Source: a virus
Virus record (IMG/VR): IMGVR_UViG_3300045988_042432
Direction: 5' to 3' (one strand)
Length of the DNA: 64,000 nt
Each line of letters begins with the position of its first letter. Position 1 is the first letter of the stretch. Positions 2,653 to 38,336 of the stretch are shown here, piece by piece. The notes beneath the pieces were generated by a model. The model saw only the letters and a list, made by a program, of their open reading frames with translations, was not told the origin of the DNA and made no database searches. The position numbers and the translations under genes are program-made.

Positions 2653-2907
2653 TTAGCGAATGTTATTATAAATGCAAGATAGTTGCATTAAATATTCAAT
2701 ACCAGCTCCATTAGCTAGTCCGTCTTGCAATTTATTTAATAATTCTAATTTTACATCTGTTGTTTTATTGTCTAACTTCACCCAGTTAGTTGCCTTTGAT
2801 TCATTACATCCTAAATCAGTATTTACTGGACATTCTGACAAACTAGTCTTTAATATTTTTACTTCATCTACTTCTTTACTTGTTAAGTCTTTAACTTCTT
2901 TAGCCAT
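2653..2907 (-). CDS. hypothetical protein (84 aa), first gene of the minus-strand block
   Basis: Track ORF next to the divergent intergenic region. Confidence 0.6.
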   Translation of the reverse strand: MAKEVKDLTSKEVDEVKILKTSLSECPVNTDLGCNESKATNWVKLDNKTTDVKLELLNKLQDGLANGAGIEYLMQLSCIYNNIR

Positions 2908-3039
2908 TGGTATAAATTTTAGTTATTGTTAATAATTCTGATTTAAGTTCGCAAATATATTATTATTTAATTTGACAATACAAAATTAGTTATATATTTC
3001 AATATTACCAAATGGTAATATAATTATTAATATATATTA

Positions 3040-3053
3040 TATATTGCCAACTC
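3040..3053 (+). repeat. TATATTGCCAACTC 14-mer, copy 1
   Basis: Exact 14-mer. Together with downstream TAATAT it resembles TTGCCA-N16-TAATAT. Confidence 0.85.
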
Positions 3054-3054
3054 A

Positions 3055-3070
3055 AATTCACAGTTAATAT
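3055..3070 (+). repeat. AATTCACAGTTAATAT 16-mer, copy 1 (copy 2 at 15018-15033)
   Basis: Exact 16-nt match between the two loci, read directly. Confidence 0.85.
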
Positions 3071-3074
3071 TAAG

Positions 3075-3088
3075 TATATTGCCAACTC
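3075..3088 (+). repeat. TATATTGCCAACTC 14-mer, copy 2
   Basis: Exact 14-mer, followed by a GC-rich hairpin (GCCCCttcgGGGC). Confidence 0.85.
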
Positions 3089-3166
3089 GGAACTTCATGA
3101 CGTGCTGTGGCAATCTGCGCCCCTTCGGGGCTTGCTTGCAATTAGTAAGATGAATAGAAATTAATA

Positions 3167-3180
3167 TATATTGCCAACTC
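3167..3180 (+). repeat. TATATTGCCAACTC 14-mer, copy 3
   Basis: Exact 14-mer, followed by a hairpin (CCCACtcccggGGTGGG). Confidence 0.85.
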
Positions 3181-3238
3181 ACAAGTACGGGTGCTCAAAA
3201 TCACACCCCTCCCACTCCCGGGGTGGGTTGTCATATTA

Positions 3239-3252
3239 TATATTGCCAACTC
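3239..3252 (+). repeat. TATATTGCCAACTC 14-mer, copy 4
   Basis: Exact 14-mer. Confidence 0.85.
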
Positions 3253-3281
3253 GGATGCTGGGTGAATATTGCAAGATTTGT

Positions 3282-3295
3282 GTATATTGCGGATA
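3282..3295 (+). repeat. degenerate 14-mer copy (TATATTGCGGATAC)
   Basis: The first 8 nt are identical to the 14-mer. Confidence 0.5.
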
Positions 3296-3507
3296 CGACA
3301 GTCGTGTTACCCCTCACACCCCTCACCCATGTTTGGAGAAAATCAAAAGATTTATATCATTTGGTTTTGCTTTATAATATTCATTTTAAAATTATTAGCT
3401 TATGTACACTATTTTATCAAACGGTTTAGTTCGTGTCAATCTTACAGGTTGTTATATCACAATGTCAGAATATAAAGAACTAATTGCAAACGTATAAAAT
3501 TAAATCA

Positions 3508-3531
3508 AGAACGGGTAAATAAGCCCGTTCT
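3508..3531 (+). promoter_or_regulatory. 8-bp hairpin upstream of the first + strand gene
   Basis: AGAACGGG-taaataag-CCCGTTCT, 30 nt upstream of ATG 3561. Confidence 0.4.
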
Positions 3532-3560
3532 ATATTGTTTCACTAATAAATTATTAAACT

Positions 3561-4043
3561 ATGAATTTAGCAGAATTACAAGAAGTTAACAAGAAGTTAC
3601 CGAAAGCAAGCAAAAACGAAATTGCGGCAGCTTTAAACCGTTTGGGTGTGAATCCTGATTCTATCAAGGTAGGCGACAAATTGAAGTTTCCCGCTGAAAT
3701 TAACGAATTTAACGGAACAATCACAAAAGGAGTTGTGAACGGTAATACATTCTTTCAAGTTGCAGTAGAGGTTAACGGAACGGCAAGAAACGTGTCTATC
3801 AATTCTTTGTTCCGGTCTTTTAACGACCGTGAAAACAACAAGCGTATTACACCGGTTGACATTCTTCCAGAGGCGGACAAAGACAAATGTATTTTCAATA
3901 TGTTTGAAAATAAGACAATAGCGGAATGTCTTGCAGATTTACAAGGTACGGAAGTAACCGCAAAGGCGATAGAAACGTTTGAAAGCGTCGCAAGAGACGG
4001 CAACCAAATGAACGTAAATGTCATTGCATATTGCAAGGAATAA
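3561..4043 (+). CDS. hypothetical protein (160 aa)
   Basis: Track ORF that is visibly more GC-rich than its neighbours. Confidence 0.65.
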   Translation: MNLAELQEVNKKLPKASKNEIAAALNRLGVNPDSIKVGDKLKFPAEINEFNGTITKGVVNGNTFFQVAVEVNGTARNVSINSLFRSFNDRENNKRITPVDILPEADKDKCIFNMFENKTIAECLADLQGTEVTAKAIETFESVARDGNQMNVNVIAYCKE

Positions 4044-4440: not shown

Positions 4441-4695
4441 ATGGACTACATCGAAGACGATTTCACAGATGCTCTAATTGATGCAATTTGTGAGAAATCA
4501 CCAAGCACTTGGTATACCTTAATAGGAGAGAACTTTGACCCAGACGAAGAGACAATAGTCAAGGAAGCTGACAATAAGAAGGACATTGAAGATGCATTTA
4601 ATGAAAGCAAAGACGACTTTGATTTATTATATGTAGTACTTAATGATGAATCTTATGCGGCATGTTCCAAAGGCTCTAAACTTATTTGGAAGTAA
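4441..4695 (+). CDS. acidic hypothetical protein (84 aa)
   Basis: Track ORF. Confidence 0.55.
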   Translation: MDYIEDDFTDALIDAICEKSPSTWYTLIGENFDPDEETIVKEADNKKDIEDAFNESKDDFDLLYVVLNDESYAACSKGSKLIWK

Positions 4696-10090: not shown

Positions 10091-10609
10091 GGGCCTAGAT
10101 TTGGTTTTGACAGGCGATTACAAGTTAGTAAGACGTGTAGAGTTCGTACCAACTCTTTAATAATGATACAGCAATTTAAGTGGAAACACTGAAGTAAGAA
10201 TGGCAGCCTAAGCTGCTGGCTTATCTATTAATTTAGCTCTAAGTCGGGTTAATTGGAGAGACCTAGAAACAGAAGAGGTGTGGGAAGAAGCGTATAGAGC
10301 AGCCCACTTAACTTGAAAGCCAAAGGTTAGTAAAGCTGAAATCTCCACTACCTATCTATGGGTTACAAATAGAAACGTTCTCCAACGTAAATGGAGTGGT
10401 GGAGCGACCGTTCGGTCAAGCCCAGTTTGGTAGTTTGTGAACAACTAAGTCGTAGCCCTACGAGGGAGACGTAATTGGTGAATTAACACTCGGCTTCTTA
10501 GTAAAACTACCTACATGCTGAACTCAACAGCTGATGTAATAAAATAGAGACACACGTAATCTTATTAATGAGGGTTGTTTGGACGGCGGTTCGACTCCGC
10601 CTAGGTCCA
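10091..10609 (+). ncRNA. ssrA: tmRNA (transfer-messenger RNA)
   Basis: 5' end is GGGCCTAGATTTGGTTTTGACAGG. The 3' T arm is GGCGG-TTCGACT-CCGCC followed by TAGGTCC-A. Acceptor GGGCCTA/TAGGTCC has G3:U70. Tag ORF 10182-10210 is GGA AAC ACT GAA GTA AGA ATG GCA GCC TAA, giving GNTEVRMAA*. Confidence 0.8.
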
Positions 10610-10637
10610 CTATTATTAACGTTTAAATATCAATTTT

Positions 10638-12487: not shown

Positions 12488-12557
12488 CCACTATTGACGA
12501 ATAGTGGTAGCAAAACTTGGTCTGAAGAACCAGTAGACATATTCCGGAGTATGTCTA
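12488..12557 (+). ncRNA. candidate structured RNA: three adjacent hairpins including a tRNA-Phe-like anticodon arm
   Basis: First hairpin CCACTATT-gacg-AATAGTGG (12488-12507). Second TTGGT-CTGAAGA-ACCAG (12517-12533). Third TAGACATA-ttccggag-TATGTCTA (12534-12557). All lie in a 380-nt ORF-free gap. Confidence 0.3.
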
Positions 12558-12865
12558 TGACTTAAAGGCTATATCAAAGAGTTGAAACCTGTATCTATTC
12601 GAACAGTAGGAGTTCACCTGATTAAGCATCAGAAAACAGTAGTGCAAATCTACTATAGATATTGTGTAAGAGAGAATCTACACGGTCTGTATTATATAAT
12701 CAGCATGCAGATAGGTCACCAAGCAAACCTCTTTCCTGCCTGGTCAAGTGTGCATTACGGTCTGTAAGTGGCGAGCGGGTTAACGTATGTCCGATTGCCG
12801 TAATGCCGCTTGTTTATTGTTTAGAATAAAGAAAGACTCTCATAACAATAAATTTAAACAAAGAG

Positions 12866-16866: not shown

Positions 16867-16938
16867 GCCCCATTACTTCAGTGGTAGAAGAGCAAATTCT
16901 AAACTTGTATGGCGTTGGTTCGAGTCCAACATGGGGCA
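16867..16938 (+). tRNA. amber suppressor tRNA, anticodon CTA
   Basis: 72-nt cloverleaf. Acceptor GCCCCAT/ATGGGGC. D arm CTTC-AGTGGTA-GAAG. Anticodon arm GCAAA-TTCTAAA-CTTGT with CTA at 16899-16901 and an A31:C39 mismatch. T arm GTTGG-TTCGAGT-CCAAC. Confidence 0.8.
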
Positions 16939-16940
16939 CT

Positions 16941-18506: not shown

Positions 18507-18593
18507 GTGCAGTTGGCCGAGTGGTCGAAGGCAATAGACTGTTAATCTATCGTGACGAAAGTCCCACCGCAAGTTCGAATCTTGCACTGCACG
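18507..18593 (+). tRNA. class II (Ser-like) tRNA with anticodon GTT
   Basis: Acceptor GTGCAGT/ACTGCAC with G73. Ser-type D arm (TGGCCGAGTGGTCGAAGGC). Anticodon arm ATAGA-CTGTTAA-TCTAT. 18-nt variable arm. T arm GCAAG-TTCGAAT-CTTGC. Confidence 0.7.
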
Positions 18594-18718
18594 CAAACAC
18601 ATTAGATTATTAACATTAAATTATAAGATTATGCATAGTTTTGGTGCTTACATTGTGGGAGCTATAGTGCTAGTAGTATTGTATTACATCTTTAAAGATT
18701 CCACAATCTAAAATTGAT

Positions 18719-24821: not shown

Positions 24822-24909
24822 GGAGAGTTGGGTGAGTGGCTTAAACCAGTCCCCTGCTAAGGGACCGAACCTCAAAAGGGTTCCGCTGGTTCGAATCCAG
24901 CACTCTCCG
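24822..24909 (+). tRNA. tRNA-Ser(GCT), class II
   Basis: Acceptor GGAGAGT/ACTCTCC with G73. Anticodon arm GTCCC-CTGCTAA-GGGAC. Long variable arm. T arm GCTGG-TTCGAAT-CCAGC. Confidence 0.9.
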
Positions 24910-24961
24910 CGCTGGCTAATAAGAGTTTGCGAAAATCATTATTAACCTAATTATTAGAATT

Positions 24962-27045: not shown

Positions 27046-27128
27046 GCCGACTTCGCATAGTGGTTGATTGCACGTGACTTGTAATCACGAGAGGAAACTC
27101 CACGTCAGTTCGAATCTGACAGTCGGCT
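27046..27128 (+). tRNA. tRNA with anticodon TGT (Thr) and a 14-nt variable region
   Basis: Acceptor GCCGACT/AGTCGGC. Anticodon arm CGTGA-CTTGTAA-TCACG. Variable region AGAGGAAACTCCAC. T arm GTCAG-TTCGAAT-CTGAC. Confidence 0.65.
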
Positions 27129-27215
27129 CGATTGTAATCCTAGATGATTACAGTTAGATTATAAATTACCACACAGAGATGCTTATTGAATTTAACATGT
27201 TAAATGTAAGTGTAA

Positions 27216-34568: not shown

Positions 34569-34964
34569 ATGTTTGTAAAATTTGTAAAAGATGATAAGGT
34601 AGTACAAGAGGTGTCAATCTCATCAGAAATGATTCCGTTTCCTACTGATACAGTAGTTCTAGAAGAAGGCAAATTTACTGTAGAGAGTAGAGAATATGAC
34701 ATTCTTGACGGAACTTGTACAGTTATTTTAGACCAACAAATTACTTGGACAGAGCATCCTCAAGAGTACAATAACGCAATGCTTGCTTATAAGAAGCGTT
34801 GGAATAACACAATTGATTTGTCATGTGAAGACTTCTTTAAGATGAAACAGTTTGTATCGACTGGTTCCAAACTGCAAGCAGTTAAGCATGTAAAAGAATC
34901 TGCTAAATGTGGTTTAAAAGAAGCTAAGGATTTTGTTGACACTTATTGCGATTACGTATTATGA
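34569..34964 (+). CDS. hypothetical protein (131 aa)
   Basis: Track ORF. Confidence 0.65.
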   Translation: MFVKFVKDDKVVQEVSISSEMIPFPTDTVVLEEGKFTVESREYDILDGTCTVILDQQITWTEHPQEYNNAMLAYKKRWNNTIDLSCEDFFKMKQFVSTGSKLQAVKHVKESAKCGLKEAKDFVDTYCDYVL

Positions 34965-35015
34965 GGTGGTTGTATCATATCCTAATTAATTGGATAGACT
35001 TAGTAAGAGATTGAT

Positions 35016-35192
35016 ATGGAAACAGCATTAATGATTACTGTAGTCATTGCATTTGTGGCTGCATTAATAGCTATGTTACTAACTATATGGGATTGTGACT
35101 TTAAATGGGTTAAGATATTCTTAAGTATAGCTGCTATAAGTACTATAGGAATGATAATTGTAGTTACAATCAAGGTCATGATGTCAGTATAA
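35016..35192 (+). CDS. small two-TM membrane protein (58 aa)
   Basis: Own translation: METALMITVVIAFVAALIAMLLTIWDCDFKWVKIFLSIAAISTIGMIIVVTIKVMMSV*. Confidence 0.5.
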   Translation: METALMITVVIAFVAALIAMLLTIWDCDFKWVKIFLSIAAISTIGMIIVVTIKVMMSV

Positions 35193-35198
35193 GGGTAT

Positions 35199-35231
35199 GG
35201 CTTGATGGCGAAATTGGTAGACGCCCCAGAT
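35199..35231 (+). pseudogene. 5' half of an interrupted class II tRNA-Leu
   Basis: GGCTTGA-TG-GCG-AAATTGGTAGA-CGC-C-CCAGA is a Leu-type acceptor, D arm and 5' anticodon-stem strand. The partner strands lie at 35887-35933. Confidence 0.6.
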
Positions 35232-35279
35232 GTTCACAAATTTTAACTTAACGAATTAGGTAGACTCAAAATTTAAGAT

Positions 35280-35287
35280 TATCTTTG
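35280..35287 (+). promoter_or_regulatory. -7 box TATCTTTG upstream of the HNH gene
   Basis: Matches TAnnTTTG. No clean -33 TTTG was seen. Confidence 0.35.
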
Positions 35288-35305
35288 TGTATTAAATATA
35301 CAAGG

Positions 35306-35779
35306 ATGAGTAAACGAAAATGGACAGACGACCAATTCATTGAAGCAGTTAAGTCTAGCTTCTCTTATGCAGAAGTAATGAAGAAGATTGGACTTAAACC
35401 TGCTGGCAGTAACTATGATACTGTTAAGAGGAAGATTTGTGAATTACGCTTAGATACATCACACATGACTGGTAAGGTTTGGAATCAAGGCGAAAGGTAC
35501 AGACCTATAAAAGAAGCTCGACCACTAGAAGAAATTTTAGTAGAGCATTCTTCATATGTTAGTACACATCATCTTAAAGAAAGACTTTTAAAGGAGGGTG
35601 TAAAAGAACACAGATGCGAGTGTTGCGGTAATGCAGAGTGGATGGGAGAACCTATTGCACTTGAATTACACCACGTAAATGGTGTTAAAGATGACCTTAG
35701 AATAGAAAACTTGCAAATTCTTTGTCCTAATTGTCACGCTTTTACAGATAATTATCGTGGTAGAAACATAAGCAAATAG
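35306..35779 (+). CDS. HNH homing-type endonuclease
   Basis: Track ORF 35285..35779; ATG 35306. Motif: CECCG...LELHHVNGVKDDLRIENLQILCPNCHAFT. It ends in TAG. Confidence 0.85.
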   Translation: MSKRKWTDDQFIEAVKSSFSYAEVMKKIGLKPAGSNYDTVKRKICELRLDTSHMTGKVWNQGERYRPIKEARPLEEILVEHSSYVSTHHLKERLLKEGVKEHRCECCGNAEWMGEPIALELHHVNGVKDDLRIENLQILCPNCHAFTDNYRGRNISK

Positions 35780-35786
35780 TAATGAT

Positions 35787-35871
35787 GGCGCAGTGTCGGA
35801 ACTGGTATACGAAACGCACTTAAAATGCGTTGCCCTTTATGGGATTGAGGGTTCGATTCCCTTCTGCGTCA
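35787..35871 (+). tRNA. tRNA-Leu(TAA), class II
   Basis: Acceptor GGCGCAG/CTGCGTC. Anticodon arm ACGCA-CTTAAAA-TGCGT. Long variable arm. T arm GAGGG-TTCGATT-CCCTT. Confidence 0.85.
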
Positions 35872-35880
35872 CAAATGTAT

Positions 35881-35933
35881 CTAAGCTCTGGTGTCCAGAA
35901 ATGGACGTGTGGGTTCGAATCCCACTCAAGCTA
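35881..35933 (+). pseudogene. 3' half of the interrupted class II tRNA-Leu
   Basis: CTAAGC-TCTGG (pairs with CCAGA at 35226-35230). Variable arm TGTCCAGAAATGGACGT. T arm GTGGG-TTCGAAT-CCCAC. Acceptor strand TCAAGCT-A pairs with GGCTTGA. Confidence 0.6.
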
Positions 35934-35958
35934 CTAATAATTAAAGGAAGGAGGATTT

Positions 35959-36135
35959 ATGAAAGAACTATTAGAACAGCTAAAAGAACAGTTTGCAGGA
36001 AATGAAATTATGACTGCTGTTACTGATACAGTGGAGAAAGCATATAATATTGGATATTCTGAAGGTTTTGCTGCTGGTGAAGAAGCAATGAAGAATCTAA
36101 TTGACAAGTTAACATCACCTACAATATCTAATTAA
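35959..36135 (+). CDS. small hypothetical protein (58 aa)
   Basis: Own translation: MKELLEQLKEQFAGNEIMTAVTDTVEKAYNIGYSEGFAAGEEAMKNLIDKLTSPTISN*. It is preceded by AAGGAAGGAGGA. Confidence 0.5.
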   Translation: MKELLEQLKEQFAGNEIMTAVTDTVEKAYNIGYSEGFAAGEEAMKNLIDKLTSPTISN

Positions 36136-36136
36136 T

Positions 36137-36628
36137 ATGACTATAGAAGAGTTCCTGCGCAAAATAGTTGAGATTGATTTAACTCAAGCTCAACACGTGT
36201 TCCATGATTGGGATGCTGCTCTGGAGAATTATGCTATTAGGTATAAGAAACACGGTTCACCCAATGTAGTTAGGTTATTAAAGATTGCTAACTCATTGGG
36301 TGAACTTGTTGATTTATATAGGGGAGTAGTGCTAAGAAGATATCCAATGACTATAGCTTCGTTGAATAGTAAAACTGTCAGATATAATGAGTTGATATCT
36401 TACTATAACTACAAGAATGGGCAAGAGTTAACCTTGTTTGAAAGGATAAGTAATGGCTCTACCATGGAAGAGAGATTAAACTTTGTATATTTAATGTCTA
36501 AAGCCGATGCATTACAAGGAGAGACTATTGACCGAAGGAAAATCCTTCAGAACCTCAGAGAAGGGAAACTCTATGACTCCTCTAATCAAATCTGGCCAAG
36601 AGCATGTCTTGAGTCCTATAAATCTTAG
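36137..36628 (+). CDS. hypothetical protein (163 aa)
   Basis: Track ORF that ends in TAG. Its 3' 120 nt overlap the next ORF. Confidence 0.6.
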   Translation: MTIEEFLRKIVEIDLTQAQHVFHDWDAALENYAIRYKKHGSPNVVRLLKIANSLGELVDLYRGVVLRRYPMTIASLNSKTVRYNELISYYNYKNGQELTLFERISNGSTMEERLNFVYLMSKADALQGETIDRRKILQNLREGKLYDSSNQIWPRACLESYKS

Positions 36629-38253: not shown

Positions 38254-38336
38254 GCGGTTGTAGTGTAAAGGAGGGCACATCACTAATTTTAGTATGCGCA
38301 CAAGTGATAGATTGGGTTCGATTCCCGACAGCCGCT
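38254..38336 (+). tRNA. tRNA-like gene with 18-nt anticodon loop (related to tRNA-Ala at 20564)
   Basis: Acceptor GCGGTTG/CAGCCGC. D region GTAGTGTAAAGG...CAC. Anticodon stem TCACT/AGTGA encloses AATTTTAGTATGCGCACA. T arm TTGGG-TTCGATT-CCCGA. Confidence 0.45.

Follow-up and report, generated by a model that had tools for sequence, protein, structure and literature searches.

Two strategies of persistence are generally recognised for homing endonucleases, namely shelter within self-splicing introns or inteins and a position between genes. The locus described here lies in a stretch of viral DNA of 64,000 nucleotides (nt; IMG/VR record IMGVR_UViG_3300045988_042432), called the window below, and consists of a gene for transfer RNA (tRNA)-Leu(UAA) whose anticodon loop is split by a cassette; the latter holds a gene for an HNH endonuclease and a second, complete tRNA-Leu(UAA) gene, and the two tRNAs are called outer and inner, respectively. 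It appears to be a homing-endonuclease element that neither splices nor lies between genes, but disrupts its target and carries the replacement. The preliminary description of this DNA, made from its letters alone, had named no described case of a tRNA nested in a split tRNA with a homing endonuclease, and no account of such an arrangement was found in the full-text literature searched, which is a limited library and gives no proof of novelty.

Among the known systems, the group I introns of tRNA-Leu genes are the closest: they occupy the same gene at essentially the same site, have an endonuclease gene inside and exon halves on both sides, and those that fill this site in sibling phages possess a homologous HNH protein, leader and 3' end. 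The element of the window differs from them in that it lacks the ribozyme core, P1 and the terminal G, and cannot self-splice; function is restored instead by the second complete tRNA. A 2014 review places every phage group I intron known at the time in a protein-coding gene, although phages have many tRNA genes (PMC3984707). As for SegB of phage T4, it is a free-standing GIY-YIG enzyme that recognises a tRNA gene sequence and drives the inheritance of the tRNA cluster (PMC2330249). It resembles the present case in being a phage endonuclease tied to tRNA genes, with a presumed cleavage in the competitor and adjacent tRNA genes that are co-inherited; however, SegB is of another enzyme family, lies between genes, interrupts nothing and relies on the homology of the flanking genome, whereas the element of the window sits inside its target, brings the halves of the target as presumed homology arms, and moves between genomes that otherwise share nothing.

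Regarding endonuclease genes placed directly in a functional gene, Friedrich et al. are said to have reported in 2007 that mobE, inserted in nrdA of Aeromonas phage Aeh1, splits this gene, the fragments of which reassemble into an active enzyme. As in the window, a homing-endonuclease gene leaves its host gene in two pieces with no intron or intein involved, but in the window the pieces appear abandoned and a whole replacement gene is carried. Integrative elements in tRNA genes likewise have a tRNA as target and compensate for the damage, in their case by restoring the 3' end of the gene; the cassette differs from them in having no integrase and no att repeats, in being inserted in the anticodon loop, and in bringing a whole new tRNA (no part of the outer tRNA is duplicated in the insert, and no integrase open reading frame (ORF) was found there, the HNH gene being its only ORF). 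Finally, ClvR and HomeR are engineered Cas9 drives in insects, in which the nuclease destroys a needed gene and a linked, recoded copy of it is immune. The combination of a nuclease acting against the wild-type copy with a linked cleavage-immune copy is the same, while the element of the window is natural, guided by protein and found in a phage, and the immunity of its inner tRNA is predicted from sequence.

Contigs related to the window were collected from IMG/VR with two flanking proteins as probes, which returned dozens of them; the L-numbers used below are labels of the contigs compared with the window. In about 20 sibling contigs ARAGORN finds an uninterrupted 87-nt tRNA-Leu(taa) at the equivalent place, with the flanking genes 649 base pairs closer together. 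In one of them, L024, the intact allele starts with GGCTTGATGG, continues with CCAGA-TTTAAGC-TCTGG and ends with TCAAGCTA; written around its loop, the sibling allele is GGCTTGATGGCGAAATTGGTAGACGCCCCAGA-TTTAAGC-TCTGGTGTCCAG...TCAAGCTA. The window reads GGCTTGA-TG-GCGA-AATTGGTAGA-CGCC-CCAGA at 35199-35230 and TCTGG-TGTCCAGAAATGGACG-TGTGGGTTCGAATCCCAC-TCAAGCT-A at 35887-35933; its positions 35199-35231 are identical to nt 1-33 of the L024 allele (33 of 33), and positions 35882-35934, which run one base beyond the gene, are identical to nt 35-87 (53 of 53), a match far beyond chance. The single base of the intact gene for which the cassette stands in, U33, is universally conserved.

The preliminary description had taken the two segments for the halves of one split tRNA-Leu and had proposed looking for an empty site in related phages, where the halves could have turned out to be unrelated sequences; the siblings have this empty site, both halves are identical to their uninterrupted gene, and the relatives show that they belong together. 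It had also considered the loop remnant compatible with a UAA anticodon; the remnant, TAAGC (35882-35886), corresponds to the last five bases of the intact loop TTTAAGC, which makes UAA the anticodon of the outer tRNA. If the halves are connected through a 7-nt loop, in any combination of the adjoining bases, ARAGORN returns an 87-nt tRNA, which is called tRNA-Leu(taa) if at least four of the loop bases are taken from the 3' side; in the intron mode of the same program, with introns of up to 1000 nt allowed, the outer tRNA was not found. The 3' half is identical also to the 3' exon of L067, a sibling in which the gene bears a true intron.

The cassette is composed, in this order, of a 72-nt leader, the HNH gene, a 7-nt gap, the complete inner tRNA and a 10-nt tail, and the coordinates of these parts are collected in the table.

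Table. Features of the split tRNA-Leu(UAA) locus and of the cassette that it contains
Feature	Position in the window	Strand	Basis
Outer tRNA-Leu(UAA), 5' half: acceptor 5' strand, D arm, stem CCAGA, loop base 32	35199..35231	+	
Inserted cassette, 650 nt, in place of U33	35232..35881	+	filled/empty site comparison
Cassette leader: tRNA-Leu-like stretch, conserved box, small hairpin, AAGG just before the start codon	35234..35305	+	
HNH homing-endonuclease gene, 157 amino acids (aa)	35306..35779	+	Pfam, PHROG
Inner complete tRNA-Leu(UAA): loop CTTAAAA, long variable arm, discriminator A	35787..35871	+	ARAGORN, Rfam
Cassette tail CAAATGTATC	35872..35881	+	alignment A3
Outer tRNA-Leu(UAA), 3' half: anticodon TAA (35882-35884), G37, C38, TCTGG, variable arm, T arm, TCAAGCT, discriminator A	35882..35933	+	

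The view that an invader with an endonuclease and a replacement tRNA splits the anticodon loop, already expressed in the preliminary description, is borne out by the precision of the insertion against the empty site of relatives, and by the recurrence of the cassette in a number of unrelated tRNA-Leu genes, between which the acceptor strands covary. The HNH gene of the window is 100% identical at the nt level in three other contigs, L098, L100 and L106, which represent two other contexts. In these unrelated contexts the junctions of the cassette are the same, ...CAGA/TGTTCACAAATTTT... on one side and ...GCGTCACAAATGTATCTAAGC/TCTG... on the other (the slash marks the border), and the outer acceptor strands are GGCTTGA/TCAAGCT in the window, GCCGAGA/TCTCGGT in L098, and GCCTGGA/TCCAGGT in L100 and L106; in each of the latter two pairs the strands are complementary to each other and unlike those of the window. 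The 3-kilobase (kb) flanks of the loci in L098, L100 and L106 have no detectable similarity to the window outside 35198-35944.

Copies at greater distance follow the same plan. L059 has a cassette of 95.8% nt identity, and decay is visible in the 5' acceptor strand of its outer tRNA; L064 and L122 have a diverged cassette nested in a tRNA with outer strands GCCCGAA/TTCGGGT, L063 a diverged copy that has lost the outer 3' half, and L088 a diverged copy nested in another allele, with eroded outer halves. In L072-L077 the HNH protein is 66% identical, the inner tRNA is a different one and the outer strands are GCCCAGA/TCTGGGT, and L133 is probably a third cassette lineage. Overall, the outer halves are perfect in the window and in L100, and eroded or deleted in L059, L063, L064, L088 and L097, with loop or stem bases lost in L064 and L097; this fits a recent insertion where the halves are perfect and an older cassette where they have decayed. 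Filled and empty sites were paired for four contexts, namely the window with L024 and others, L100 and L106 with L109, L063 and L064 with L108, L110 and L111, and L072-L077 with L113-L115; the cassette is thus present or absent at one precise site in similar genomes, and it has copies in unrelated ones.

Within the lineage of the window the same gene has three different occupants: the cassette of the window; that of L097, which is 78.7% identical to it and 96.2% identical to that of L064; and the true group I intron of L067 (the same as L045). This shows what, from the sequences, would be at least three separate invasions of one gene in this phage lineage and, together with the identical cassettes in unrelated genomes, is the signature of a site-specific mobile element. 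Free-standing arrangements exist as well, since the HNH gene lies beside an intact tRNA-Leu(UAA) in L060-L062, L080 and L092, and in L060-L062 the HNH gene and the inner tRNA occur without outer halves. As for reproducibility, the arrangement at 35149-35983 is identical in two independent samples (L105 and L107), and the gene context with the identical HNH protein recurs in five further ones, from different samples and assemblers; the 5' junction is also in ODLM01000015.1, and the exact HNH protein is in 73 blocks of a public assembly index, with the gene context of the window in 7 of the 10 contigs shown.

The locus also exists in several intact forms. Closely related phages (L023-L049) have no fewer than four unrelated tRNA-Leu(UAA) sequence families at this one position, with acceptor 5' strands GGCTTGA, GGCCAGA, GGCGCAG and GGCTGGA, and it is the anticodon arm that differs most; such allelic diversity is unusual for a tRNA gene. 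In L048 (about 4505-4585) a tRNA-Leu of the intact type has a 12-nt deletion in the T loop and is a pseudogene.

The inner tRNA starts seven bases past the stop codon of the HNH gene and belongs to a different sequence family from the outer one. Its identification as a complete tRNA-Leu(TAA), made earlier from the letters, is confirmed by Rfam (RF00005, 52.8 bits) and by ARAGORN, which calls tRNA-Leu(taa) at 35787-35872. In an alignment of 12 sequences (eleven homologues) the cloverleaf is kept, and double compensatory changes are seen at 13 of 24 pairs, especially those of the anticodon and D stems, the anticodon stem being where the homologues vary most. No other tRNA-Leu(UAA) was detected in the window, where UUA is the commonest Leu codon of the ORFs (26.9%); as the sole UAA isoacceptor there, and one that evolves like a functional tRNA, the inner tRNA would indeed be the working copy of the destroyed function that the preliminary description saw in it. 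In the related phages L039 and L046 a tRNA of this family is the only allele resident at the locus, so the tRNA of the cassette and this resident allele share their origin. In L036 (4895-5040) an inner-type tRNA in native position precedes a copy of the cassette tail, after which come the loop bases TAAGC of the donor and the 3' half belonging to a third allele, and no HNH gene is at the locus; L036 is probably the recombinant footprint of a cassette, left by recombination with co-conversion.

Regarding the endonuclease, the ORF matches Pfam PF01844 (22.0 bits, cutoff 21.4) and phrog_10822, "HNH endonuclease" (E 4.9e-48), in agreement with the original assignment. The protein is of the beta-beta-alpha-metal type with zinc-binding cysteines; the motif CxxC...HH..N...N..CxxCH is conserved, in the form CECCG...LELHHVNG...ENL..LCPNCH in 20 homologues, and catalytic and zinc motifs are intact. 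The ratio of nonsynonymous to synonymous substitution rates (dN/dS) lies in the range 0.04-0.11 when cassette, free-standing and intron-borne copies are compared, values from which the gene can be judged to be under strong purifying selection. A PDB sequence search with the protein gave no match at E<=1, and megablast of the locus against GenBank phages gave none; distant blastn found only generic tRNA-Leu matches and one HNH homologue, in Dulem virus 42, in an uninformative context.

Self-splicing of the insert as a group I intron is ruled out, as there is no P3-P9 core, no U at the 5' splice site and no terminal G. A search with model RF00028 found nothing in 34900-36200 even at E<=10, nor anywhere in the window at E<=0.001; between the HNH stop codon and the 3' half there are only 102 nt, 85 of which are tRNA, so there is no room for a ribozyme core. 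True introns read ...TTT/AGAAAA...GTATG/AAGC, whereas the window reads ...ATGTATC T/AAGC, where the base before the 3' half is T or C and not G, and loop position 33 is G.

Relatives with a ribozyme do exist. In L045/L067, which have the same outer allele as the window, an intron of about 827 nt (about 2903-3729) lies between U34 and A35, which is the classic position of the cyanobacterial and plastid tRNA-Leu intron. It begins with AGAAAAAG and ends with GTATG, and its core aligns end to end with RF00028 (42.7 bits, E 2.9e-9, which is below the gathering score of 50), with recognisable R (GTGTAGAGACTATA) and S (AAGACATAGTCC) elements; its HNH protein is 78% identical to that of the window and the HNH gene 75.5% identical in nt. 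Nearly the same intron is in a different tRNA-Leu allele in L066 and L086, and HNH-bearing introns between U34 and A35 of phage tRNA-Leu(UAA) were found in L065 (42.6 bits), L085 (59, above gathering), L069, L071, L078 and L087. With these introns the cassette has in common the stretch that precedes the ORF (alignment A2) and the final ~10 nt, A.AGAT(T)GTAT (alignment A3); the tail resembles the last bases of the related intron (TAGATTGTATG) without the terminal G, and the same tail follows the inner-type tRNA in L036, L059, L098 and L100. The first ~30 nt of the intron (P1-P2), the whole core and the terminal G are those parts that the cassette does not have. The homology to the L067 intron supports descent from, or exchange with, an intron, and not membership in this class; the element is therefore best seen, as far as such homology can tell, as an intron relative that has no ribozyme and not as an unrelated invader, a point that the preliminary description had missed. 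A further observation is that L068 has two group I introns within 2 kb, at 1745-1991 and 3447-3649 (65.9 and 63.3 bits, above the Rfam gathering score), one of them directly after an HNH homologue and upstream of a tRNA-Lys.

The same HNH family (64-69% aa identity) is found in tRNA-Leu(UAA) group I introns of contigs from Bacteroidales metagenome-assembled genomes (L126-L132, L137, L139 and L140). L129 (78-3133) is flanked by ORFs that resemble, by reading of their translations, an HD-domain hydrolase and an NlpC/P60 protein, and it looks chromosomal; host and phage tRNA-Leu genes may draw on one pool of introns and endonucleases. These HNH relatives in Bacteroidales bins suggest a host among the Bacteroidota. 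The relatives of the window are 90-190-kb contigs from the human gut with a tRNA of the amber-suppressor type, and tblastn of its proteins gave only weak matches, to Cellulophaga phages and unannotated faecal phages. The window may belong with the Zeta-group crAss-like phages (145-192 kb), in which group I introns, inteins and suppressor tRNAs are reported to abound (PMC7886860, PMC12386605).

The reading that we consider probable is that of a homing cassette related to group I introns but devoid of ribozyme, which replaces its target gene instead of splicing out of it; our confidence in the structural and comparative parts is much higher than in the full mechanistic model, in which cleavage and homing are what we infer from sequence comparison. 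During co-infection, the HNH enzyme would cut or nick an intact tRNA-Leu(UAA) gene near the anticodon stem-loop, where CAGATTTAAGCTCTG is present in each invaded allele that has a recovered intact counterpart, apart from the L072 type (loop CTTAAAC). The break would be repaired from the genome that bears the cassette, with the two tRNA halves serving as portable homology arms, and the whole cassette would be copied in. The interrupted outer tRNA would then be dead, because no ribozyme is there to remove the insert, and UUA decoding would be supplied by the inner tRNA, probably co-transcribed with the HNH messenger RNA and freed by RNase P and 3' processing. The inner tRNA would not be a target, and would probably be immune to cleavage, because 14 of 32 positions around the insertion point differ between it and the invaded allele, as read from the two sequences. 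The state of the outer halves, perfect in recent insertions and eroded around older cassettes, and the footprint in L036 agree with this course of events. As for its origin, the cassette would likely derive from an HNH-bearing tRNA-Leu intron that lost P1-P2 and the P3-P9 core, these being replaced by a captured, resistant tRNA allele.

Several points weigh against this reading. The target of the HNH enzyme is deduced solely from the position of the cassette, and the cassette could also travel by general recombination when phages co-infect a cell, with no help from a nuclease. The outer halves in the window are pristine, and their function would be conceivable from this copy alone, although recency explains their state; the copies of L060-L062 that have HNH gene and inner tRNA without outer halves would allow the opposite order of events, with a free-standing pair of HNH gene and tRNA at the start. 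Finally, the assignment of a promoter is weak, and the leader holds a tRNA-like stretch that the true intron lacks. This stretch (35252-35279, CGAATTAGGTAGACTCAAAATTTAAG) aligns with tRNA-Leu positions 10-38 (shuffle p ~0.002-0.01) and is also in L064, L060 and L080; it may be what is left of a tRNA invaded earlier, or else a target-like operator beside the conserved box TATCTTTGTGTAT.

This box, at 35280-35292, is conserved upstream of nearly all HNH homologues, a small hairpin lies at 35288-35302, and the leader as a whole is homologous in cassette, free-standing and intron-borne copies (alignment A2). A scan of IMG/VR for the leader motif returned four true cassette contigs and two chance coding matches (L116 and L118). 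A promoter or operator role of the leader may be supposed from the conservation of the block. As for the -7 box noted in the preliminary description, TATCTTTG is indeed present at 35280-35287 within the conserved block, but TANNTTTG is not enriched in the window (75 found versus 66.9 +/- 8.1 expected), and a Bacteroidetes -7 box as a statistically supported promoter was rejected on this ground. The 7-nt direct repeat CACAAAT, which had been described as bracketing the insert, proved to have no such meaning: the repeat is really of 8 nt (TCACAAAT, at 35234 and 35869), five other direct repeats of 8-10 nt exist within the same 841 nt, and it is not conserved in the diverged cassettes L064, L088 and L072. 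Being at chance level, absent from the intact allele and not conserved, it is not a target-site duplication. A perfect 12-nt inverted repeat connects the HNH ORF at 35448-35459 (GCTTAGATACAT, codons LDTS) with tail and loop remnant at 35875-35886 (ATGTATCTAAGC); it is shorter in other cassette lineages, and because of this weaker complementarity no role is assigned to it.

Four other explanations were weighed; the first two differ from the homing cassette mainly in the history or in the role of the arms, and the last two are contradicted by the data. In one, which we regard as unlikely, the locus is a decaying group I intron that lost its ribozyme by accident and into which a neighbouring tRNA recombined; it would not itself be mobile, the HNH protein would drive nothing, and spread would be due to ordinary recombination or shared descent. 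The homology of leader and tail to those of the true intron and the decay of the outer halves in several loci agree with this idea, as does the degeneration of homing-endonuclease genes once all sites are filled (PMC3984707). However, empty sites are still common, the HNH gene has the low dN/dS values given above, and identical cassettes sit in three tRNA-Leu genes with unrelated flanks; moreover, the L072-L077 lineage, with its diverged HNH protein (66% aa) and its own inner tRNA, is still nested in a split tRNA-Leu that has an empty-site partner.

It is equally improbable, in our judgement, that a free-standing endonuclease acts here by intronless homing, so that the inner tRNA is a co-converted resistant allele, the nested halves are by-products of repair, and there is no descent from an intron. 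T4 SegB sets a precedent, being a free-standing endonuclease that targets tRNA genes (PMC2330249), L060-L062, L080 and L092 have the HNH gene standing free beside an intact tRNA-Leu(UAA), and the stretch of the leader that resembles a tRNA 5' half has no counterpart in the intron. Yet free-standing genes interrupt nothing, while the HNH gene of the window is inside a tRNA gene; the tail resembles the 3' end of an intron, the HNH genes that true introns carry at this site are clearly homologous, and junctions identical to the base in unrelated contexts fit the copying of a defined unit better than sloppy repair.

Far less credible is an outer tRNA that is still made, by a ribozyme acting in trans, by processing at the inner tRNA followed by ligation, or as a split tRNA, even if the halves in the window are intact and mutually complementary and group I introns are numerous in the phage group to which the window may belong (PMC7886860). 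A ribozyme core is lacking; loop position 33 is occupied by G, and the 3' half is preceded by T where group I splicing needs a terminal G; the sequence that adjoins the 5' half (TGTTCACAAAT) forms a direct repeat with the one in front of the 3' half (TCACAAATGTATC), and the two are not complementary, unlike those of the split tRNAs of Nanoarchaeum; and in older copies the halves are decayed or lost. An assembly chimera at a repeated tRNA sequence, conceivable for a metagenomic assembly and for tRNA-Leu genes that have conserved stretches in common, can practically be dismissed, since the same junctions come from independent samples and assemblers (two identical throughout, five with the gene context and one with the 5' junction) and the microhomology at the junctions is of 8 nt at most.

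Other RNA features of the window deserve mention. At 38254-38336 there is a tRNA (Rfam 38.5 bits) with an anticodon loop of 18 nt (AATTTTAGTATGCGCACA), on account of which ARAGORN missed it; the loop includes GTATG, as does the 3' end of the tRNA-Leu intron, and could be a mini-intron, an excision scar or the mark of a pseudogene. A phage transfer-messenger RNA (tmRNA) at 10091-10612 (Rfam 85.8 bits, full model; no ARAGORN call) is 522 nt long against the 374 positions of the model and may carry an insertion, and at 12488-12595 there is a strong match to the RAGATH-34 RNA (120.9 bits, gathering 60.7). Further tRNAs were listed together at 16867-16939, 18507-18594, 27046-27129 and 24849-24925 (minus strand); they include one with a CTA anticodon, of the amber-suppressor type, which ARAGORN labels Pyl, and a tRNA-Asn (88 nt) and a tRNA-Thr (84 nt) with unusually long variable arms, while the call of a tRNA-Arg on the minus strand that overlaps a tRNA-Ser(gct) is probably spurious.

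In conclusion, this element suggests a third way in which homing endonucleases persist, that is, to break the target and bring the spare. Our opinion is evenly balanced on whether it stands for a distinct natural class of selfish elements of a "home and rescue" kind, whose insertion is made harmless by the cleavage-immune gene copy that they carry and not by splicing of RNA or protein. In such a class the halves of the destroyed gene would be portable arms with which the element jumps between phage genomes that have only a tRNA gene in common, and it would have lasted long enough to diverge into several lineages, each with its own inner tRNA. It should be noted that annotation pipelines will miss the broken outer gene and report one ordinary tRNA beside an HNH gene. 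If confirmed, the element would be nature's equivalent of the cleave-and-rescue gene drives, which were conceived by design and then constructed in insects, and it would illustrate how loss of the ribozyme need not cost an intron its mobility; it would also explain the diversity of tRNA-Leu(UAA) alleles in these gut phages and suggest an arms race over the target of the nuclease.

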